Assembly: GCA_964449725.1 (NCBI GenBank)
Contig: CAYUZL010000070.1
Coordinates: 1-11,582, forward strand
Direction: 5' to 3'
Source: an uncultured Alteromonas sp.
GTDB taxonomy: Bacteria > Pseudomonadota > Gammaproteobacteria > Enterobacterales > Alteromonadaceae
Length of the DNA: 11,582 nt
Positions 1 through 11,496 of this stretch are shown in pieces (the first letter of the stretch is position 1; every line of letters starts with the position of its first letter). The notes beneath the pieces were generated by a model. The model had not been told where the DNA came from and ran no database searches. It saw nothing but the letters and a program-made list of their open reading frames with translations. The translations under genes and the position numbers were made by a program.

Positions 1-367
<367 letters not shown>

Positions 368-498: not shown

Positions 499-618
499 TG
501 TCTGGCGACAATAGCGACGTGGTACCACCTGACTCCATTCCGAACTCAGAAGTGAAACACGTTAGCGGCGATGGTAGTGTGGGGTTTCCCCATGTGAGAG
601 TAGCACATCGCCAGACTC
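499..618 (+). rRNA. rrf: 5S ribosomal RNA
   Basis: TGTCTGGCGACAATAGCGACGTGGTACCACCTGACTCCATTCCGAACTCAGAAGTGAAACACGTTAGCGGCGATGGTAGTGTGGGGTTTCCCCATGTGAGAGTAGCACATCGCCAGACT. This is a canonical gammaproteobacterial 5S, with helix I closing TGTCTGGCG/CGCCAGACA. Length is ~120 nt. Confidence 0.95.
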
Positions 619-644
619 CTATTCAGCTCATGAGAGCTACGAGA

Positions 645-672
645 AAGCCATCCGAAAGGGTGGCTTTTTTTT
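645..672 (+). terminator. Rho-independent terminator of the rRNA operon
   Basis: AGCCATCC-GAAA-GGGTGGCT stem (7 bp including one G-U) with a GNRA tetraloop, followed by TTTTTTTT, about 27 nt after the 5S 3' end. Confidence 0.8.
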
Positions 673-841: not shown

Positions 842-870
842 TTGACATTTTTCTGTCATGGCAATAGATT
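842..870 (+). promoter_or_regulatory. Sigma70-like promoter (TTGACA-17 nt-TAGATT) for the yqiJ-yqiK-AAA operon
   Basis: A consensus -35 TTGACA sits at 842-847, a 17-nt spacer follows, and TAGATT is at 865-870. This is ~55 nt upstream of the first ORF's start (926), with GGAG 8 nt before the ATG. Confidence 0.5.
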
Positions 871-925
871 AGGTTTACTTAACGAGGATCGTTAAGTCGC
901 AGTAGCTTATGACGGAGTACATGTA

Positions 926-1567
926 ATGGATAGCCTTTTTTCGCTCTTAGTGAGTTTTCCTACCGCCCCCTATTTTTATTTTTTAATCATATTGCTAGTG
1001 TACTGGCTTATCGTTTCTTTTGGTTTGCTTGATATTGAATTGTTTGATCTCGATATTGAATTGGACGCCGAAGACGACCTTGATAGCGGCACTGAGCATT
1101 GGCTCAGTAAATTAGGGTTGGATGGTGTACCACTTACTGTGGCCATTACATTTTTAGATATTTACGCTCTCGCATTTACCTATTTAGGGCGAAAATATCT
1201 GATGCCTCTCTTTGATGGTTTGCTTACCGCTACAGCGACGGGGGCAGTGGTTGCTGTATTCTCATTGTTACTGGCAATTCCTTTGTCAGCACTGTGTATT
1301 AAACCATTAAGGCAAGCTTTTACTACCCATGAAGCTGTGTCTAAACGAGATCTTGTTGGCACTATCTGCACGGTGACTACATCAAGGGTTAATCCAACAT
1401 TTGGTCAGGCAGAAACCCCTGACGGAATGCTATTAAATATAAGGTCCGCCACCCCAAATTCAATGACTAAAGGATCTAAAGTCGCGCTAATTGAATTTAA
1501 TAAAGAATCTGATTGCTATTCAGTCGTTACTGAAGAAGAGCTAATGGCCATGGCGTCATCTAGTTAG
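926..1567 (+). CDS. yqiJ: YqiJ/NfeD-like inner-membrane protein (DUF1449-type; N-terminal TM helices, acidic DIELD-repeat linker, C-terminal OB-fold-like segment)
   Basis: 213 aa, a similar size to E. coli YqiJ (~209 aa). It has a hydrophobic N-terminus, 'LDIELFDLDIELDAEDDLDSG' resembling the YqiJ 'LDFSLDIDLDFDSD' region, and further TM segments. A short-NfeD-like beta-rich C-terminus is present (VGTICTVTTSRV...GSKVALIEF). An RBS GGAG sits 8 nt upstream. The gene lies 30 nt upstream of a flotillin gene, as in the yqiJK operon. Confidence 0.75.
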   Translation: MDSLFSLLVSFPTAPYFYFLIILLVYWLIVSFGLLDIELFDLDIELDAEDDLDSGTEHWLSKLGLDGVPLTVAITFLDIYALAFTYLGRKYLMPLFDGLLTATATGAVVAVFSLLLAIPLSALCIKPLRQAFTTHEAVSKRDLVGTICTVTTSRVNPTFGQAETPDGMLLNIRSATPNSMTKGSKVALIEFNKESDCYSVVTEEELMAMASSS

Positions 1568-1597
1568 CACTATATTTTACTATTAGGAGTTTAAGCA

Positions 1598-3604
1598 ATG
1601 TCACAGACATTAGTTTTTTGGTTGTCTCTTGCCGGCGGGTTGTTGGTTTTTTTGTTAATCATTTTAACTATGCTTGCGAGGCTGTATAGAAAGGTAGAAC
1701 AGGGTAAAGCCATGATAGTGAATACTATGCGGGCTGAGCCTAAAGTGACGTTTACCGGTTCAGTTGTGTTACCCGTTTTCCATAAAATGGAAATTATGGA
1801 GATTTCATTGAAGACAATTGAAGTGGACAGAAATGGTTCCGATGGTCTGATTTGTAAAGATAATATCCGAGCAGATATCAAAGTGGGCTTCTTTGTACGG
1901 GTAAACAAAAACCGAGATGACGTGCTTAAAGTTGCGCAAGCCATAGGGTGTGAGCGAGCGTCTAACATAGAAACCCTTGAAGCCCTATTTAGTGCCAAGT
2001 TTTCAGAAGCGCTTAAAACCGTTGGTAAATCCTTAGATTTCGAAGAGCTTTACGCTAAACGGGATAATTTCAGAGATTTGATTATTGACAATATTGGGAC
2101 TGATCTAAACGGTTATGTTTTGGAAGATGTAGCAATAGATTACTTAGAGCAAACGCCTATTTCTCAGCTTGACCCAAATAATATTTTAGATTCGCAAGGT
2201 ATTAGGAAAATTACTGAATTAACCGCTGAGCAACATATTCAGACCAATATATTTGAACGCGACGAAGAAATGAAAATTAAGCGTAAAGATGTTGAAACTC
2301 GTGAAGCTATATTAGAGCTTGAGCGTCAGCAAGCCGATGCGGAAGCCAAACAAAGCCGTGAAGTCGAAACGGTAAAAGCAAGAGAAGTGGCAGAAACTGA
2401 ACGGGTACAACATGAAGAAACTTTGAAAGCAGAGCAAGCTCGCGTTCAAGCCGAACAAGAAATCCAAGTTCAAGAACAAAATAAACAGCGAGAAATTGAA
2501 GTCGCAGAAAATAATCGACTACGCGCTGTAGCCATCGAAGAAGAACGAGTTGTTAGGGCTAGAGAGCTAGAGCAGATAGACCGTGAGAAAGAAGCATCTT
2601 TACAAAAAATTGCGAATGAAAAATTGATTGAACATGAAAAACGGGAAATTGCTGATGTGATCCGTAGCCGTGTTGAAGTAGACAAAACCGTTGCCGAAAA
2701 AGAAGAAGAAATTAAAGAGCTTAAAGTTGTTGCTGAAGCTGATCGCAATAAACAAGCACAAGTGATAGCCGCTGAAGCTGAAGCTGAAGAAGCGCTAGTT
2801 AAAGATATTAAAGCGGCAGAGGCGGCAGAAAAGTCTGCTGAACATATCGCAAAAGAAAAATCTATTTTGGCACAAGCTGATTTAGAAGTTGCTGAAAAAC
2901 AAGCAGTAGCAAAACGCAAAGAAGCGGAAGGATTAGAAGCGCTTGCAGCTTCAGATGGTTTAGCCGCTGCTAGAGTCCAAGAAGCACAAGCCAGTGCTGC
3001 AGAACAAGAAGGCATGGCTGAGGTTCGAGTGAAAGAAGCAATGGCTGACGCTATTGAAAAATCCGGTGTAGCAGAAGCCGAAGTGGCAGCGAAGAAAGCG
3101 GAAGCTGAAGCTCAAGGTATGACTAAAAAGTTTGAAGCGATGGCGACTATGTCTGAACAACAGCGTAGCCATGAAGAGTTTAGAATGAAACTCGATAAAG
3201 CCCATGACGAAACTATGGAACAAATACGCACCAACGTTGACATTGCCAAAGAACAATCAGTCGTTCTGGCTCAAGCACTTAAAGAAGCCAATATTGATAT
3301 TGTGGGTGGAGATACTCGTTATTTCGATTCGTTTGTTAAATCGCTATCGGTGGGTAAATCCATTGATGGAACTGTAGGTAAAAGCGCTATGTTGTCTACT
3401 GCCTTTGAGCCTCACATGAACGGCGACGCAAGTCTAGTTGAAGACGTGAAAGAGCTTGTAGCAGGCTTCGGTGACGCCAGTGGTAGCGCCAAAGATACAG
3501 CGACAACGGCATTGATCGCCAAATTGTTGAAGGAAGGCAGTGTGGATCCTTCATTACTTGAATTAATTAGTAACGGCTTGAAAGACCTAAAGAAAGATAA
3601 GTAG
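1598..3604 (+). CDS. yqiK: Flotillin-like SPFH/band-7 protein, YqiK type, with an extended Glu/Ala/Lys-rich coiled-coil
   Basis: 668 aa. It has an N-terminal TM helix followed by 'ARLYRK', then 'VVLPVFHKMEI', 'FFVRVNK' and 'DPNN'. These are collinear with the E. coli YqiK motifs ARLYRR, VMPIFHE, FFVRV and NPNN. A long heptad-like EA-rich region spans ~aa 230-520. An AGGAG RBS is 8 nt upstream of the ATG. Confidence 0.9.
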   Translation: MSQTLVFWLSLAGGLLVFLLIILTMLARLYRKVEQGKAMIVNTMRAEPKVTFTGSVVLPVFHKMEIMEISLKTIEVDRNGSDGLICKDNIRADIKVGFFVRVNKNRDDVLKVAQAIGCERASNIETLEALFSAKFSEALKTVGKSLDFEELYAKRDNFRDLIIDNIGTDLNGYVLEDVAIDYLEQTPISQLDPNNILDSQGIRKITELTAEQHIQTNIFERDEEMKIKRKDVETREAILELERQQADAEAKQSREVETVKAREVAETERVQHEETLKAEQARVQAEQEIQVQEQNKQREIEVAENNRLRAVAIEEERVVRARELEQIDREKEASLQKIANEKLIEHEKREIADVIRSRVEVDKTVAEKEEEIKELKVVAEADRNKQAQVIAAEAEAEEALVKDIKAAEAAEKSAEHIAKEKSILAQADLEVAEKQAVAKRKEAEGLEALAASDGLAAARVQEAQASAAEQEGMAEVRVKEAMADAIEKSGVAEAEVAAKKAEAEAQGMTKKFEAMATMSEQQRSHEEFRMKLDKAHDETMEQIRTNVDIAKEQSVVLAQALKEANIDIVGGDTRYFDSFVKSLSVGKSIDGTVGKSAMLSTAFEPHMNGDASLVEDVKELVAGFGDASGSAKDTATTALIAKLLKEGSVDPSLLELISNGLKDLKKDK

Positions 3605-3639
3605 ACCCTAGGTAAGCACAACTTTTTAAGGAAAGTAAA

Positions 3640-6600
3640 ATGGCTGATGTAGATCAGGTAGCTTCGGCAGTTGCTGATGGCGGCGCATATGAAGTCATCA
3701 AAACGCGTTTGGAAGCACACGCCAAACAACTGAAGTCTGAATTAGACACGTTAAATCAAGCTCGAATTGAAGAGTTTGGTCAGACAAAGTTAGACGTGTG
3801 TGGACGTGTTCGTGTGCGTACCGAACACAATTGCATTGCCCGAGATATTGTTCCTGTGGGCGATGCATTGCTGTTTGGTTACAACGTCTACATTGGCTTA
3901 AAAAAAGAAACACAAATTAAAGACGTATTCTCTCTGTATCAATTAAAGAGTGAAGGAAACAACTACGAGTTATCGCAAAAAGCACTAACCAAAACATTTT
4001 TAGACGACCCTACCTTTAAAAAAGAGTTCGCCGAACTGTATGTATATTACAAAGAAGCCAAGCTTATTCAGTTGAAGGTTCAAGCGGGTATCTTGTTTGC
4101 TGTATTTCAAATAGGCCGAAAGATAGATGATGTCAGGGTTTTCCAATGGAAGGTAAACCCTAACGGTGGCGCAGACTATATTGATAATCGTGGAGAAAGA
4201 GCAATAAAACACGCTTCTTCTCATGATTTTGTTTGGATGCCTACCAGCCGTGATATGCACGAGTCAGGTAGCCACCCCCATATTAATATTCTCGATAAAG
4301 TCTTTATTGAAACTATCGGCGGAAACTTAACGGTTAAAGTTGAAAATAATACCCAAGATGGCTTGGGTATCTATCAAGAACCTGTCGACGATAAAAACCA
4401 GTCACTGGCCGATGCAGAGGTAGAATACGCTGAAGTTGGTAGCCTTATTTTAATGCGCGTAGTTCCGTATCGCGAGAAAACCGCCCGTTATCTTATTTTT
4501 AATACACGAACCCACGACGTAAAACGCATAGACGCAATAGGGCAAGCCTGTATTACCTTACCTGAAGATCACGGTATCATTTTCCCCGGTGGTTATTATT
4601 TAAATAATGGTGAAAGTAAAACTTTTCCTGACCAAATCGATGGCCTTAATTTTAAGCGTAGTATTCGCTCGCCTAATGGCGAAGATGTGTTGTATGTGTT
4701 TTATGAGCCTGAGTCGGGTTTGGCAGGCTTATATTCTTACAACTTAATTCGAAAAGAACTACAAAACCCAATTTACGGACACGGATACAGCCTGTTTTCA
4801 GATGGCAAAGCGGTTATTTTCAGCTCTGAAGACGAAGCGACTCGGGTTCATCCCATGCAAGTTTGGAAAACGCCTTATTTTAGTGAAGAATTTGTCGCAA
4901 ATCAGCCAACGTCAGATACGTTTTTTTCCAGAATTGGAAACAAAGAGTTGGTAAGAGGGATCTCTGACTTAACCAGTATTTGCAAAATGGTGGACAATTC
5001 TAGTCCAAGTAAAAATTTGTATGAAGATCTGATCAACGTTAGTCGCAGTATGGCTGATAGTTATTACTGGTTAGACTCCGATGAACTAAAAGCCATAGGT
5101 GAATTGGTTAAAAATATAACCAGTACGTCTGAATTAGTTATCGATGAGTTCGAAAAAGTTGAGCAAATTAGACGCAAAGCAACAGAAGCGTTGAATGCAG
5201 CTAATGAAAAGCATGATGAATTACTGTCGAACATAGATACAAGCCGTTGGGATACCCCAAATCAGTATGTTGAAAAATTAAGCGAACTCAGAAAGCAAAG
5301 AGGTCACTTAATAACGCTAAAAGAACAAAGGTACATAGATTTACCGCGCATCGAAAAAATGGATGAAGAACTCAACCACGTTTTCGATACGGTAAGCCAA
5401 GCGACAGTGGCGTTCCTTTCTAGCGATGTTGCATTAACCCCGTTTAATCAGCAAATTGAAGAAGCGAATAAGGCCATTGAAGAGGTTGAATCGGTTGTTA
5501 GCATTCAGCCTATTAATGACCAATTAGATGGGCTATCTGAAGGGTTAGATTTATTGATTGAGGTCCTGAACGGACTAAAAGTAGAAGACGCTAACGTTCG
5601 TACTCAGATTTTAGATGACATATCTGAACTGTATGCAAAAGTGAATCAAGTTAAAGCCAAAGGAAGGCAAAAACGTACCCAACTAGGCTCAGGCGAAGCA
5701 AAATCTGAATTTGCTGCACAGTTTAGGCTTTTCTCCCAAAGCATCAACAATGCCCTCTCGGCATCGGATACACCTGAAAAAGCCAATGAACAGCAATCTA
5801 GGTTGCTTATACAACTAGAAGAACTGGAATCGAAATTCAGTGAGTACGACGAGTTTTTAAGTGACATTATGGCAAAACGCGAAGAGCTACACAGCGCGTT
5901 TGAAAGCCGAAAGCAAACCTTGATGGAAGCGCGCCAACGTCGTTCTCAGAACTTATTTAATGCCGCTGAGCGCATTATTAAAGGCGTGGTACGCAGAGCC
6001 GGAGGGTTTAATGATAACGATGAGTTAAATACCTTTTTTGCGTCTGATCCTATGATCATTAAATGTGGTGATTTAGCCACAGAACTCAGAGAAATCGACG
6101 ATCAAATTAAAGCCGACGACATTTTGTCTCAGCTTAAAGCGGCAAAAGAACAAGCTATTCGCAGCCTACGAGACAAAAATGAGATTTTTGAAGGTGGCGG
6201 CAGTGTAATCAAATTGGGTAAACACAAGTTTAGTGTTAACTCGCAAAATTTAGACCTTACCTTAATTGCCAAAGAAGACGGGGTGTATAGACATCTTATT
6301 GGTACCGACTACTACGAGAAGTTTGACTCTCAGGTATTAAATGAACTCAAAGCCTATTGGCATCAAGAATTGGTATCTGAAAATGATAAGGTCGCAAGGC
6401 TGGAATACCTTGGGTTCTGTATTTTAAGAGATGCTGAAAAAGGGATGAATTCATTGGATATGAATACATTTCGCGCCGCGGTTCAGCAGCCCAGTGAACT
6501 TAAAAATTTAGTTCGAAAATATATATCAGAACGTTATCAAGAAGGTTATGAAAAAGGCGTACACGACGCAGATGTGAGCCAATTACTTACTCAATTAGCA

Positions 6601-8673
6601 CCAGTTCACGCTAACGCAGGCGTATTAAAATATGCTCCTAAAGCACGTTCATTGGCTATGTTGTTTTGGCGTTTTAAAGGCTTAGACAAAAAGCAAATCG
6701 CGATATGGCAAAGCCAAGCTCAAAGCGCGACCATGTTAGAAAAAACACTTGGGAGCCGTCAGGGATTTGATTCACTTATTGCTGAATTACTGGATTCGTT
6801 AAGCCGCTTTAATCAGTTGAATCAGTTAAGTTTCGACCATTCGATTTTATTGCAAAGTGCAGAGTACTTGTGTGCTGAATTGACCCAATTGACGATCTCT
6901 TTTGCTGCGAGTCGACCAGCGAGAACATTAGTGAGTAGTTTTGAATCCACACTTGCGGATTTAGGGCATTTAAACGAGTTTGAACAAGCAGTTAAAAACC
7001 TGACTTCGCTAACTGACAGCAATAAAGGTGACGGTGTATATCAACAGTGGAACCTTGCTTGTGCTTGGTTAGCTGCGTTAGTTGAGCAATCAGAAAACAT
7101 CGGGGATGTGCACTATATTCCCGAAGCGGCAGCGCTGATTATCTGCAAAGGGCACCTAAGCGTAACGCCTTTAGATGCAGAGCTTCAGATTAAATTACAA
7201 GGGCTTTTAAGCGAACACCCTCGTATTAAACAAGGTGAACTAACCCTTGCACTAGACGAATTTAACGCTCGCTTACAGCGTTTTTGTGAATTGGATGTAG
7301 AACAATATCATCAGTACCAACAAACCCGTATTGAACTGATGGCTGAGAGTAAAAAAGAACTCCAATTAGATAGTTACAGTGCTAAGCCACTAAGCTCATT
7401 TGTGCGAAACCAACTTATTGATCAAGTTTATTTACCCATAATAGGCGATAACTTAGCGAAACAAATGGGCACAGTGGGTGCGGATAAACGAACGGATTTG
7501 ATGGGCCTATTGTTGTTAATATCACCACCAGGATACGGCAAGACAACCTTAATGGAATACATTGCTGATAGGTTGGGCTTGGTGTTTATGAAAATAAATT
7601 GTCCATCTCTGGGGCACGATGTGACCTCTATTGACCCGGAAAATGCGCCCAACGCAACAGCCAAAAAAGAACTGGAAAAGTTAAATTTAGGGTTGGAAAT
7701 GGGTAACAATGTCATGTTGTATTTAGATGACATTCAGCATACTCATCCCGAATTTTTGCAGAAGTTTATTGCGTTATGCGATGGTACAAGACGAATCGAA
7801 GGTGTTTGGAAAGGGGAAAGCAAAACCTACGATATGAGGGGGAAAAAGTTCTGTGTTGTGATGGCGGGGAACCCTTATACGGAATCTGGCGATGTGTTTA
7901 CTATTCCCGACATGCTTGCAAACCGTGCTGACATTTATAATTTAGGTGATGTGTTAGGTGGCAAAGAAGAGGTATTTGCACTTAGTTACATAGAGAACTG
8001 CTTAACATCGAATTCAGTACTTGCACCTATGGCAGTACGTGAAATGGACGACTTGTACAAACTAGTTGCAATGGCGAAAGGTGAGAATATTCCTAGTAGC
8101 GACTTATTTCATCAATACAGCGGGGCTGAATTGAATGAAATAACACAAGTGTTAAAGCACCTATTAGAAATTCAAAAAGTCATTCTTAAAGTGAATCTCG
8201 CGTATATTCAATCTGCGGCGACCGCCGATGATTACCGCGTTGAGCCTCCTTTTAAACTTCAAGGTAGTTACCGAAACATGAATAAAATGGCTGAGAAAGT
8301 GTCATCAGTCATGAATCATGAAGAGTTAATGAGGTTGATTGGCGATCACTACGTAGGAGAAGCGCAAACGCTGACGTCTGGCGCAGAAGAAAACTTGTTG
8401 AAGTTAGGACTTTTGAGAGGCGCGTTAAGTCAGGAAGACACTGAGCGTTGGGAGCATATCTGCTCTAGCTATTCAGCGAAACAACAGCAAGATATTGAGG
8501 GCGATCCCAGTACAATTGCTGCACAAAAATTATCTCAGTTAGCTGCAACCTTAGATGTGATAAAAGACGACATGTTGCAGTCTGATACCGGTGATTTGAT
8601 TCGACCAATCAATCGTGTTGCCGCAGCTATGCACCTGTTAAGCAAGACATGGACAGGAGATACTAGCAAGTAG
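3640..8673 (+). CDS. Giant (1677 aa) multidomain protein with a C-terminal AAA+ ATPase module (MoxR/dynein-like 'AAA_5' flavour), co-operonic with flotillin; function unknown
   Basis: A single uninterrupted ORF starts 36 nt after the yqiK stop, with an AAGGA RBS. Walker A LLISPPGYGKTTLMEY is at nt ~7519-7548. Walker B VMLYLDDIQ is at nt ~7710-7735. Sensor-1-like VVMAGNPY and an arginine in MLANRADIYNLGD follow. The N-terminal ~430 aa look beta-rich and globular. Residues ~450-1250 are largely helical/coiled-coil. No second P-loop was found, and no DxSxS vWA/MIDAS motif. Confidence 0.85.
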   Translation: MADVDQVASAVADGGAYEVIKTRLEAHAKQLKSELDTLNQARIEEFGQTKLDVCGRVRVRTEHNCIARDIVPVGDALLFGYNVYIGLKKETQIKDVFSLYQLKSEGNNYELSQKALTKTFLDDPTFKKEFAELYVYYKEAKLIQLKVQAGILFAVFQIGRKIDDVRVFQWKVNPNGGADYIDNRGERAIKHASSHDFVWMPTSRDMHESGSHPHINILDKVFIETIGGNLTVKVENNTQDGLGIYQEPVDDKNQSLADAEVEYAEVGSLILMRVVPYREKTARYLIFNTRTHDVKRIDAIGQACITLPEDHGIIFPGGYYLNNGESKTFPDQIDGLNFKRSIRSPNGEDVLYVFYEPESGLAGLYSYNLIRKELQNPIYGHGYSLFSDGKAVIFSSEDEATRVHPMQVWKTPYFSEEFVANQPTSDTFFSRIGNKELVRGISDLTSICKMVDNSSPSKNLYEDLINVSRSMADSYYWLDSDELKAIGELVKNITSTSELVIDEFEKVEQIRRKATEALNAANEKHDELLSNIDTSRWDTPNQYVEKLSELRKQRGHLITLKEQRYIDLPRIEKMDEELNHVFDTVSQATVAFLSSDVALTPFNQQIEEANKAIEEVESVVSIQPINDQLDGLSEGLDLLIEVLNGLKVEDANVRTQILDDISELYAKVNQVKAKGRQKRTQLGSGEAKSEFAAQFRLFSQSINNALSASDTPEKANEQQSRLLIQLEELESKFSEYDEFLSDIMAKREELHSAFESRKQTLMEARQRRSQNLFNAAERIIKGVVRRAGGFNDNDELNTFFASDPMIIKCGDLATELREIDDQIKADDILSQLKAAKEQAIRSLRDKNEIFEGGGSVIKLGKHKFSVNSQNLDLTLIAKEDGVYRHLIGTDYYEKFDSQVLNELKAYWHQELVSENDKVARLEYLGFCILRDAEKGMNSLDMNTFRAAVQQPSELKNLVRKYISERYQEGYEKGVHDADVSQLLTQLAPVHANAGVLKYAPKARSLAMLFWRFKGLDKKQIAIWQSQAQSATMLEKTLGSRQGFDSLIAELLDSLSRFNQLNQLSFDHSILLQSAEYLCAELTQLTISFAASRPARTLVSSFESTLADLGHLNEFEQAVKNLTSLTDSNKGDGVYQQWNLACAWLAALVEQSENIGDVHYIPEAAALIICKGHLSVTPLDAELQIKLQGLLSEHPRIKQGELTLALDEFNARLQRFCELDVEQYHQYQQTRIELMAESKKELQLDSYSAKPLSSFVRNQLIDQVYLPIIGDNLAKQMGTVGADKRTDLMGLLLLISPPGYGKTTLMEYIADRLGLVFMKINCPSLGHDVTSIDPENAPNATAKKELEKLNLGLEMGNNVMLYLDDIQHTHPEFLQKFIALCDGTRRIEGVWKGESKTYDMRGKKFCVVMAGNPYTESGDVFTIPDMLANRADIYNLGDVLGGKEEVFALSYIENCLTSNSVLAPMAVREMDDLYKLVAMAKGENIPSSDLFHQYSGAELNEITQVLKHLLEIQKVILKVNLAYIQSAATADDYRVEPPFKLQGSYRNMNKMAEKVSSVMNHEELMRLIGDHYVGEAQTLTSGAEENLLKLGLLRGALSQEDTERWEHICSSYSAKQQQDIEGDPSTIAAQKLSQLAATLDVIKDDMLQSDTGDLIRPINRVAAAMHLLSKTWTGDTSK

Positions 8674-8691
8674 CACTATGCTAGCGTCTTG

Positions 8692-10014
8692 TTACTCTGT
8701 TAGCGCCGCATAGGCTATCGCAGTCATAATGTTTTTAGATGCATTAAGGTCTTGAAGGCGGCGCTGGGCTATTTTGTCAAACGTTGCTTTTTCGCTTTTA
8801 GCAATGGGCTGTGCTTTCGGTAAGGTTACGGTTCTAGGGTTGCGGTGAACACCGTCCACAAGAAATTCATAATGTAGGTGTGCGCCAGTTACCATACCCG
8901 TTGAACCTAGATAACCTACAGTTTGACCTTGTTTCACCCAATCGCCTTTTTTCACTGCACGTTTTTTAAAGTGAAGGTATTTCGTGGTGTATTTTTCGCC
9001 GTGTTGAATAAAAACGTGATGACCGTTGAATTTGTCATACCCTGCACGAATAACTTTACCATCTCCTGCAGCCATTACTGGAGTGCCGACAGCTGCTACG
9101 TAATCGGTTCCTCTATGGGCTTTCCAGCGTTTCTGTACAGGGTGAAAACGTGCTTTTTTGAAGTTTGAACTTACGTACCTAAAATCAACGGGAGCGCGTA
9201 AAAAACTTTTACGCATACTACGCCCTTCTGGCGTGTAGTAATTTCCATCTGTGTGCATAACAGCTTGAAAGGTATCACCTTGGTTTATGAACTCTGCTGC
9301 GATAATGTCACCATAACCTACGAAGTCACCGTCGATATAATGTTCCTCAAAGACAACATTAAACATATCACCTTTTCTTAGTTCAATCGCAAAGTCGATA
9401 TCCCAGCCAAATATTCCTGCTAAACGCATAATTAAATTGTCAGTTAATCCGGCTTTGATACCTGCGTTCCAAAAACTACTTTCAATTTGCCCGAACGCAA
9501 AGTTACTTCTTACTTCTATCGGGTTTTCGGTTAGCTGTGTTGAGTAGGATTTAAAATCATCTGAGGCGTCGACAAAGAGTGTTTTTGTATTTGAAAGTTC
9601 GTATCTGAGGCGCTGCAGTTTACCTTCACTGGATTTAACGTAGTCTAGCTGCTCCCCTGGGCGAATGGTTGTTAGAGATTTAGCAAGCTCGCCAGCTTGA
9701 GTTACTAAGTAGGTTTCTTTGGGAGTTAAGCCAGCTCGTTTAAAAATTTTAGCTAGAGTATCACCGGACTTAACAGTAACGTTTTGCCAAACTTCGTCTT
9801 GTAATTCTGCGTTTTCATTGTGTTCTTTAAACTGAGAGGTATTGAGAGATACTGGGTATCGAACACCTGAATCTAAAATATGAGAAGTGGAATGGGGAGA
9901 AATGTCAGCTGATTGGTTTGGTAATGAAATGAACAACACCATTATTCCGCATAGGCCTGACAGCGCTATTCTATGGGGTTTAGGTAAATTTAAAAACAGC
10001 TTAACAATACGCAT
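8692..10014 (-). CDS. mepM: Murein DD-endopeptidase MepM/YebA (M23/LytM peptidase with N-terminal membrane anchor and OapA/LysM-like domain)
   Basis: 440 aa, the same length as E. coli MepM. The N-terminus 'LNLPKPHRIALSGL' matches E. coli 'NNLPRPHRVMLGSL'. An OapA-like 'VTVKSGDTLAKIFKRAGL' is present. M23 catalytic motifs are HRGTDY (HxxxD) and TGMVTGAHLHYEF (HxH), plus 'YTTKYLHF'. Confidence 0.92.
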   Translation of the reverse strand: MRIVKLFLNLPKPHRIALSGLCGIMVLFISLPNQSADISPHSTSHILDSGVRYPVSLNTSQFKEHNENAELQDEVWQNVTVKSGDTLAKIFKRAGLTPKETYLVTQAGELAKSLTTIRPGEQLDYVKSSEGKLQRLRYELSNTKTLFVDASDDFKSYSTQLTENPIEVRSNFAFGQIESSFWNAGIKAGLTDNLIMRLAGIFGWDIDFAIELRKGDMFNVVFEEHYIDGDFVGYGDIIAAEFINQGDTFQAVMHTDGNYYTPEGRSMRKSFLRAPVDFRYVSSNFKKARFHPVQKRWKAHRGTDYVAAVGTPVMAAGDGKVIRAGYDKFNGHHVFIQHGEKYTTKYLHFKKRAVKKGDWVKQGQTVGYLGSTGMVTGAHLHYEFLVDGVHRNPRTVTLPKAQPIAKSEKATFDKIAQRRLQDLNASKNIMTAIAYAALTE

Positions 10015-10506: not shown

Positions 10507-11496
10507 GTGAAAAATAGACTTTTAAATTCTATGTTTAGTGTGAGTATGGCTGTCATTCTTGGTGTGGCAACTTCTTTTGCTTATGCAACTGAAAATACAT
10601 TTGTCACTTACAATCTTATTCTCATACAAGATTATAATTTGTCAGGTGGTGATGTAGAAGGTCAAGCGTTTATTGGTGGTGATTTAAATGCATCAGGTGT
10701 CGCAGAATTCGGTAGTCGCTTATCAAATTTAGATACTGCTGTAGATGCAGTAACAATAGCAGGAACGACCAATGCTCAAACGGTTCGAGTTTTAAATGGC
10801 AACAATGTTGTCTATAACGACTTACCTAATGGGCGAACAGAAAGTAACACATTTGATGTAAATGGAAATGGGACGATAACACAAGACAGTAGCTTGTCTA
10901 TCGATGAGTTGGAAACTGAATTAAGGGCGCAAACAGCCTATTTTGAATCGTTAAGCCCAACTGATGGGGCGGTTTTCAATAATGGTAACTTTTCATACTC
11001 AGGAAATGAATCTACGGTTGTTTTCGATATTGACGCAGACGATTTGTTTTCGAATAACATAAACGCAAATATTGATTTTAACTCTTTGGATACTGTGATC
11101 ATCAATGTTAACGCAGATGTAAATGGTGATGACGTAGCTGACGCGATTAGTGTTAATGGTGGAGTTAACCTTAATGGTTTCGGCAATGCCATAGATACGA
11201 ATGCAGGAACAACAAATGTTGTTTGGAATTTTTATAACGCGACGTCGATTGATTTCAATAACTTGGCTGTACGAGGGGCAGTGCTTGCGCCTTATGCAAA
11301 TATAACTGGCGGAGCAAGTTTTGATGGAGCTGTAGCAGCATTGTCATATACTGGTGCGAGAGAATTCCATAATTTTGTGTTTGATTTTGATATCCCTGAT
11401 GATATCAACCCTCCACAAGAAGTTCCAACTCCTAATGTATTTATACTTATGCTAGTTGGCATGATGTATATAGGTCGAAAACGGCGTTATATCTAA
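10507..11496 (+). CDS. Secreted choice-of-anchor A family protein with PEP-CTERM-like (variant PTP) C-terminal sorting signal
   Basis: 329 aa from a GTG start. There is an N-terminal signal peptide (MKNRLLNSMFSVSMAVILGVATSFAYA|TEN). 'DYNLSGGDVEGQAFIGGDLNASG' resembles the start of the choice-of-anchor A domain (..DYN.F..GD...S.D.EGR.AVGGN..). The body is Asn/Asp/Gly/Thr-rich. The C-terminus is 'PPQEVPTPNVFILMLVGMMYIGRKRRYI', i.e. a Pro motif, a hydrophobic helix and an Arg/Lys cluster, as in exosortase substrates. The alternative in-frame ATG at 10531 lacks a charged n-region. Confidence 0.8.
   Translation: MKNRLLNSMFSVSMAVILGVATSFAYATENTFVTYNLILIQDYNLSGGDVEGQAFIGGDLNASGVAEFGSRLSNLDTAVDAVTIAGTTNAQTVRVLNGNNVVYNDLPNGRTESNTFDVNGNGTITQDSSLSIDELETELRAQTAYFESLSPTDGAVFNNGNFSYSGNESTVVFDIDADDLFSNNINANIDFNSLDTVIINVNADVNGDDVADAISVNGGVNLNGFGNAIDTNAGTTNVVWNFYNATSIDFNNLAVRGAVLAPYANITGGASFDGAVAALSYTGAREFHNFVFDFDIPDDINPPQEVPTPNVFILMLVGMMYIGRKRRYI

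Follow-up and report, generated by a model that had tools for sequence, protein, structure and literature searches.

What does an AAA+ ATPase of 1677 amino acids (aa) do directly behind a membrane-protein and flotillin gene pair? The question is raised by an 11,582-nucleotide (nt) stretch of DNA from an uncultured Alteromonas sp. (contig CAYUZL010000070.1, assembly GCA_964449725.1; hereafter the window), in which three plus-strand genes, here called A, B and C, encode in turn a YqiJ-like membrane protein, a YqiK-like flotillin and the ATPase. An earlier interpretation made from the letters alone (the sequence-only reading) had taken this arrangement for a candidate undescribed system, on the view that established knowledge covers only the two-gene pairing of NfeD and SPFH genes. 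That view does not hold, as both Ravi et al. 2024 and Wallart et al. 2024 describe the operon, and we conclude with high confidence that the window genes are an abbreviated three-gene flotillin/YqiJ/DUF3686-AAA+ module of the published kind. The best overall explanation, to which we give a probability of about 0.75, combines such an abbreviated Bac-type module with a reading of its ATPase as an ATP-driven remodeller of flotillin or PspA assemblies.

If the three genes belong together, gene C should keep the company of A and B in other genomes. Gene C belongs to a large family: at 90% identity, more than 4561 clusters were matched, and a query with its N-terminal domain gave 720 clusters at 50% identity, in which full-length members are nearly all 1590-1930 aa long. 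A genomic scan limited to one genome per species turned up at least 533 gene C loci, from which we took the best 80 with 10-kb flanks (mostly Gammaproteobacteria, at least 49% identity) and identified neighbours by phmmer and mechanical calling of open reading frames (ORFs). Among the 76 of these loci that have upstream DNA, gene B lies immediately 5′ of gene C in 75, and A, B and C are colinear on one strand in 72. The sole exception is locus L007, from a Methyloprofundus metagenome-assembled genome (MAG), where gene C occupies 9971-15205 and the 10 kb upstream contain neither A nor B but minus-strand ORFs that diverge from C; this may reflect a rearrangement or partners encoded elsewhere. 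The same order was found in a distant sample with 31-38% identity in the N-terminal domain (an Actinomycetota MAG, a Fibrobacterota genome, a Vibrio and three metagenomic sequences), as all six have a gene for ∼200 aa, then one for 650-690 aa, then the ATPase, and hmmsearch identified the first as A (E from 5e-16 to 2e-37) and the second as B (E from 4e-70 to 7e-215). On a Hymenobacter (Bacteroidota) plasmid the annotated order is chaperone Tir, PspA/IM30, DUF1449, hypothetical protein and DNA repair ATPase, and on a Streptomyces plasmid it is hypothetical protein, flotillin family protein and DNA repair ATPase. Downstream of E. coli yqiJK there is no ATPase gene, and sibD/ibsD are found there. 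The linkage is one-way: gene C is essentially always accompanied by A-B, and A-B pairs can occur without C. Given their near-obligate co-occurrence across phyla, A, B and C form a functional unit, and the gene-neighbourhood check suggested in the sequence-only reading came out in its favour.

The operon of Ravi et al. (mSystems 2024, PMC11237479; bioRxiv 2020), who compared phage-shock (PspA) systems across genomes, consists of a CesT/Tir-PspA dyad, a flotillin, an AAA+ ATPase and a YqiJ/YuaF protein with three transmembrane segments; its ATPase combines a coiled coil, a beta-propeller and an AAA+ domain, and in some Proteobacteria a PLD gene joins the operon. The window genes encode the same three proteins with the same architectures, but are without the CesT/Tir-PspA pair and PLD. 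The same paper reports that abbreviated operons, with a flotillin, a YqiJ/YuaF protein and sometimes the ATPase, are widespread and might use a PspA encoded elsewhere (PMC11237479). ORFs for a CesT/Tir-like (DUF2170) protein or for PspA are absent from the window, where ribosomal RNA (rRNA) genes and a terminator lie upstream instead, and because no such ORFs adjoin them we class its A-B-C genes as the abbreviated form. The closest Alteromonadaceae loci (L001-L005) likewise consist of the A-B-C core only, and the window holds no rhomboid, PLD or Zn-ribbon gene.

An operon of this kind in P. aeruginosa is bac ('biofilm-associated cluster'; Mace 2008, PMC2587700). By reverse transcription PCR, Wallart et al. 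2024 (PMC10948618) found the six genes PA14_16140-16200 (bacA-F) to be co-transcribed, and their six proteins are co-regulated; a bacA mutant had all five downstream proteins increased 6- to 13-fold, and a sigma-54 promoter was proposed for bacABCDEF. Within our set, a P. paraeruginosa locus (L062) reads CesT-PspA-A-B-C-PLD, six genes in the same layout as bacABCDEF, and its gene C protein is 51% identical to that of the window. BacC, BacD and BacE of this cluster (PA3732-PA3727 / PA14_16140-16200) match A, B and C of the window by synteny, whereas in P. aeruginosa bacA (DUF2170) and bacB (PspA) come first, a PLD gene comes last and the proposed promoter is of the sigma-54 type, and the window has three genes and a sigma-70-like site. 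In a 2026 paper PA14_16180 appears as PaFlo3 and PA14_16160 as a short NfeD, and PA3728, listed as 'ATPase', is recurrently mutated in cystic fibrosis isolates. The bac phenotypes established by experiment, in biofilm formation, rhamnolipid secretion and virulence, are those of bacA and bacB and not of the ATPase (PMC2587700, PMC10948618). No paper on the activity, partners or structure of the ATPase was found in the literature searched, and 'flotillin + MoxR' returned nothing relevant; PA3729 does appear in Arc3 pull-down tables, where we regard it as background (fold change ∼1.3). The operon, its abbreviated form (2020/2024) and the P. aeruginosa operon were already known, and the window adds a further instance. 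What we add is the quantified linkage, a domain map, an assignment of the AAA+ clade and the invariant DD of the Walker B motif; the paper of Ravi et al. contains no structural model, AAA+ clade assignment or quantified ATPase linkage.

Genes A and B proved hard to recognise as single sequences. Gene A has no match to Pfam NfeD (PF01957) or YqiJ (PF21001 + PF07290) even at E ≤ 10, its sole Pfam match being a sub-threshold DUF4229; gene B has none to Band_7 (PF01145) or Flotillin (PF15975) at E ≤ 10, and neither gene gave anything in single-sequence scans of NCBIfam or PADLOC. Against the sequences in the PDB nothing significant was obtained for gene A by phmmer or profile, phmmer with gene B reached flotillin-1 at E ∼1 at best, and the B family profile had no match. 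When profiles of 21 orthologues each were aligned with hhalign, the A family matched E. coli YqiJ at 93.5% probability (E = 2.2e-7) over the second and third transmembrane segments and the OB-like C-terminal domain, and the B family matched E. coli YqiK at 99.9% probability (E = 2.4e-35) over residues 19-466, with partial coverage of the C-terminal 'Flot' domain. Distant gene B orthologues have precomputed Pfam matches to Band_7. Since E. coli YqiJ (on both YqiJ models) and YqiK themselves match Pfam models easily and A and B do not, we take A and B to represent a diverged subfamily whose identities hold at the profile-profile level only. On these comparisons gene A encodes a YqiJ/YuaF-like inner-membrane protein and gene B a YqiK-like flotillin, and synteny makes them the putative orthologues of BacC and BacD/PaFlo3, respectively. 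The pairs yqiJ-yqiK of E. coli and yuaF-floT of B. subtilis have the homologous two-gene core, with the small membrane protein first, but the E. coli pair has no downstream ATPase, and A and B of the window are too diverged for the Pfam YqiJ and Band_7 models. At one Saccharospirillaceae locus (L024) two B-like ORFs are adjacent, a short one at 6966-7622 and a full-length one at 7697-9766, which might stem from the duplication or splitting of a flotillin gene.

Gene C, in contrast to A and B, is readily placed by Pfam, with matches to DUF3686 over residues 31-476 (E = 5e-201), to DUF7902 (E = 3e-27) and, above cut-off, to AAA and AAA_5. It has no hydrophobic segment and is predicted to be soluble. 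An AlphaFold (AF2) model of residues 1-1200, with a mean predicted local distance difference test score (pLDDT) of 80.6, and a second model of the C-terminal part divide the protein into the domains listed in Table 1, among which the second helical region holds a conserved YQEGYEKGxHD motif (residues 966-976); near the small beta element the model is poor, with pLDDT <50 at residues 849-871. Foldseek matched the beta domain to propellers with six and with seven blades (paraoxonase, prolyl oligopeptidase, EED, Elp1 and tricorn-type). Its top matches were dynein heavy chains, which we discounted as long-helix matches (TM-scores 0.04-0.12), and comparison of gene C with PDB sequences by phmmer or profile gave nothing significant. 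The beta-rich N-terminal domain, long helical middle and single MoxR/AAA_5-like module proposed in the sequence-only reading are borne out by the AF2 models, Foldseek and Pfam, as are its gene identities by hhalign and Pfam. Gene C is accordingly assigned to the DUF3686 family of AAA+ ATPases, the putative BacE/PA3728 orthologue by synteny.

The AAA_5 match covers residues 1291-1414 (profile positions 2-125 of 139) and reaches 27.7 bits where the cut-off is 22, which makes the module MoxR/AAA_5-like by a narrow margin, as judged from its sequence. The features of that clade are present, namely Walker A, Walker B, the sensor-1 Asn and an Arg at the 'NR/DRF' position, with the Walker B reading DD and not DE. 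AAA+ ATPases normally carry a catalytic Glu as the second acidic residue of Walker B; in all family members examined, including the most distant, this residue is Asp. The motifs quoted beforehand (SPPGYGKTT, LYLDD and MAGNPY) are all present, and Walker A, Walker B (hhhhDDIQH), sensor-1 (AGNPY) and a PDMLANR motif do not vary among 62 close and 24 distant relatives. The module is 56-73% identical where the other domains share merely 18-43%, and is the most strongly constrained part of the protein; because its ATPase motifs are invariant and its constraint is the strongest, gene C probably encodes an active enzyme. MoxR proteins such as NorQ, CbbQ and RavA are ∼300 aa long and are paired with VWA proteins, and their eukaryotic relatives include midasin and dynein (AAA_5). 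The window protein differs from them in that its module stands at the C-terminal end of a much longer chain with propeller and rod, in the DD of its Walker B and in having no VWA partner, no VWA gene being found among the conserved neighbours of gene C.

What, then, might the ATPase act on? Clustering the flanking ORFs of the best 80 loci for conserved partners placed genes for DUF2170 (YjfI, CesT/Tir-like) and PspA/IM30 directly 5′ of gene A in ∼50 of the 80, and at one further locus (L083) a convergent PspA gene lies downstream of the triad. Genes for rhomboid, PLD (HKD) and Zn-ribbon proteins follow gene C in many of the 80, the conserved Zn-ribbon protein (TFIIB-type, ∼180 aa) being frequent after C or between B and C. 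PspA is ESCRT-III-like, and the DUF2170, PspA, rhomboid and PLD partners tie the module to a phage-shock/ESCRT-III-like membrane stress response. Near distant triads, genes for TelA or TerD (tellurite/'toxic anion' stress) were seen at 11502-12608 in L086, 11001-12221 in L087 and 14116-14649 in L090, with TelA adjacent in L086 and L087, and this proximity hints at a wider link to Ter-type membrane stress systems.

A working model would place the YqiJ-like protein in the inner membrane, where its cytoplasmic OB-like domain would nucleate or cap flotillin oligomers. The flotillin, anchored by one N-terminal transmembrane segment, would build up on the cytoplasmic side of the membrane into a large coiled-coil cage or scaffold, as other SPFH proteins do. 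The gene C protein would form oligomers by way of its MoxR-like AAA+ ring and grip a partner with the propeller at the end of its helical rod, and ATP would drive the assembly, remodelling or disassembly of the flotillin scaffold and/or PspA polymers under envelope stress. A PspA partner in the Alteromonas source, if there is one, would be encoded elsewhere. This membrane-remodelling reading follows the same inference as was drawn by Ravi et al., and we hold the mechanism itself, in which ATP drives the remodelling of flotillin and/or PspA assemblies at the inner membrane, as tentative, somewhat short of an even chance. Its sharper form, in which the DUF3686 ATPase is a dedicated motor of the flotillin machine whose MoxR-derived ring and propeller-tipped arm assemble or strip flotillin cages and/or PspA polymers, is possible but more doubtful still. 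The process may be likened to Vps4 acting on ESCRT-III and to FtsH within HflK/C cages, a functional analogy only between AAA+ machines that serve a membrane polymer or an SPFH cage: there is no homology to Vps4 or FtsH beyond the AAA+ fold, and gene C has no MIT domain, protease domain or transmembrane anchor. If true, the flotillin-motor reading would give bacteria a functional counterpart of Vps4 and the first known energy input to flotillin microdomain dynamics. As gene C is almost never found without a flotillin and a YqiJ partner, it offers an obvious experimental handle on the role of flotillins and on PspA remodelling without Vps4.

The strongest competitor turns on the rhomboid genes. 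These often overlap the stop codon of gene C (L006, L013, L022, L025, L042 and others), with the PLD (HKD) gene then following, and in L088 a rhomboid gene lies upstream (2192-2857). The flotillin cage could enclose membrane-protein clients that the AAA+ protein unfolds or extracts for the rhomboid, making the module a quality-control chamber analogous to HflK/C-FtsH or to a stomatin-NfeD-protease system with a separate ATPase. The propeller could act as a substrate-binding domain in such a chamber, and there are known pairings of SPFH cages with AAA+ or ClpP-type proteases (textbook knowledge, cited in PMC13086221). However, neither a rhomboid nor another protease is encoded in the operon of the window or of the Alteromonadaceae loci L001-L005, and nothing identifies a client. 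AAA+ proteins of the MoxR type, moreover, are typically chaperones of complex maturation and not threading unfoldases (textbook knowledge). We consider a chamber of this kind unlikely, and prefer the remodelling of flotillin or PspA assemblies.

The PLD genes 3′ of gene C have a second possible meaning, in that the ATPase could detect an invader and set off a membrane or PLD effector as part of an anti-phage or inter-bacterial conflict system. The three TelA/TerD loci, a gene for a WYL regulator that adjoins the Fibrobacterota locus and the textbook observation that conflict systems often contain large NTPases with propeller repeats would fit this. Yet PADLOC-DB 2.0 gave gene C only sub-significant matches to IetA, mad8 and TRIP13 (E from 6e-4 to 2e-2), confined to residues 1232-1342 around Walker A, and gene C was found in none of 50,697 phage records and in 13 of 72,556 plasmid records, the majority of them megaplasmids or chromids. 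The triad also sits in varied housekeeping contexts, the sequence and length of the ATPase are highly conserved without sensor-like diversification, and in P. aeruginosa the cluster influences biofilm formation, rhamnolipid secretion and virulence. A conflict system is improbable on this evidence.

Database names suggest yet another function. The family is labelled 'DNA repair ATPase' or 'MoxR-like ATPase', and Pfam describes DUF3686 as 'ATPase involved in DNA repair'; the first of these labels had been mentioned in the sequence-only reading and does exist. Apart from the names, a role in DNA repair could draw on weak P-loop matches to RuvB_N (E ∼1e-3), but these span ∼45 residues around Walker A, and their scores of 17-19 bits fall short of cut-offs of 27-299. 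Gene C showed no nuclease, helicase or DNA-binding domain, its constant neighbours are membrane proteins, and literature searches found no paper that mentions DUF3686 or PF12458. DNA repair is very improbable as the function, and the present assignment corrects a misleading annotation on thousands of database entries. Least credible of all is that an unrelated ATPase gene came to lie next to a yqiJK-like pair by lineage-specific chance, a reading to which the lone L007 and the ATPase-less E. coli yqiJK might point, because it is refuted by the neighbourhood counts, with the order kept in 75 of 76 loci, in relatives of 31-38% N-domain identity and on the Hymenobacter and Streptomyces plasmids.

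In the window itself the three tightly spaced plus-strand ORFs stand as first described (Table 1), with the A-B gap at the 30 nt originally counted and the B-C gap at 35 nt instead of 36. Each gene had been credited with its own Shine-Dalgarno sequence, and AGGAG and AAGGA precede the second and third starts, respectively, by about 7 nt; the genes do not overlap, so that 'translationally coupled' is a term we drop. Because an rRNA terminator and the 5S gene lie upstream, A-B-C should constitute a transcription unit of its own. The single promoter that had been assumed finds a candidate 56 nt 5′ of gene A, TTGACA-N17-TAGATT, but sigma-70-like sites in the region are no more frequent than in shuffled sequence, and the candidate is a plausible promoter, nothing more; across Alteromonadaceae relatives the upstream sequence has diverged too far to be aligned for its conservation.

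Table 1. Coordinates of the features of the window and of the proteins encoded by genes A, B and C
Feature	Window position (nt)	Strand	Residues	Details
23S rRNA, 3′ end	1-367			
5S rRNA gene	501-616			
Strong terminator-like hairpin	641-670			rRNA-operon terminator
Promoter candidate, sigma-70-like	842-870	+		TTGACA-N17-TAGATT; 10/12 matches; top score within 600-10500
Gene A	926-1567	+		213 aa
A, three hydrophobic segments			∼10-35, 67-88, 107-125	
A, acidic loop and C-terminal beta-rich OB-like domain			∼145-205 (OB-like)	
Shine-Dalgarno sequence of gene B	1586-1590	+		AGGAG; 7 nt 5′ of gene B ATG
Gene B	1598-3604	+		668 aa
B, N-terminal transmembrane segment			5-23	
B, SPFH region			∼35-190	
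B, coiled coil			∼200-520	E/A/K/Q/R-rich (64% EAKQR); followed by C-terminal tail
Gene C	3640-8673	+		1677 aa
C, N-terminal long helix	3640-3777	+	1-46	AF2; 'coiled coil' of Ravi et al.
C, beta-propeller	3793-4869	+	52-410	∼27 strands; DUF3686 core
C, helical-bundle/spectrin-like rod	4885-6180	+	416-847	
C, DUF7902 inside the rod	5431-5679	+	598-680	Pfam
C, small beta element	6205-6324	+	856-895	highly conserved; motif GG.VIKLGKH.FSVN
C, second helical region	6397-7149	+	920-1170	pLDDT 85-95 in most 10-residue blocks
C, AAA+ module	7387-8049	+	1250-1470	single, MoxR/AAA_5 type
C, Walker A	7522-7548	+	1295-1303	SPPGYGKTT
C, Walker B	7717-7731	+	1360-1364	LYLDD
C, sensor-1	7861-7878	+	1408-1413	MAGNPY
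C, candidate Arg finger	7924-7926	+	1429	R1429
C, helical lid and C-terminal extension	8050-8670	+	1471-1677	second AF2 model

The remaining parts of the window concern other genes. ORFs of 65 aa on both strands at 483-743 overlap the 5S gene and the terminator and are spurious. Downstream of the triad a convergent gene (8692-10014, minus strand) encodes an M23 DD-endopeptidase with LysM/OapA and Csd3_N2 domains, whose best NCBIfam match is ShyC at 509 bits (cut-off 700, not reached), followed by ShyA and MepM; its stop codon is 18 nt from that of gene C, and no terminator-like hairpin was detected between the two. Further along, a plus-strand gene at 10507-11496 encodes a 329-aa choice-of-anchor A / pAdhesive_15 protein (Pfam E = 6e-39, TIGR04215) whose C-terminus, VPTPNVFILMLVGMMYIGRKRRYI, resembles a sorting signal of the PEP-CTERM type. 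This gene lies in a stretch of low GC content (0.33-0.35, against ∼0.41 elsewhere) and may be an acquired surface-protein gene.

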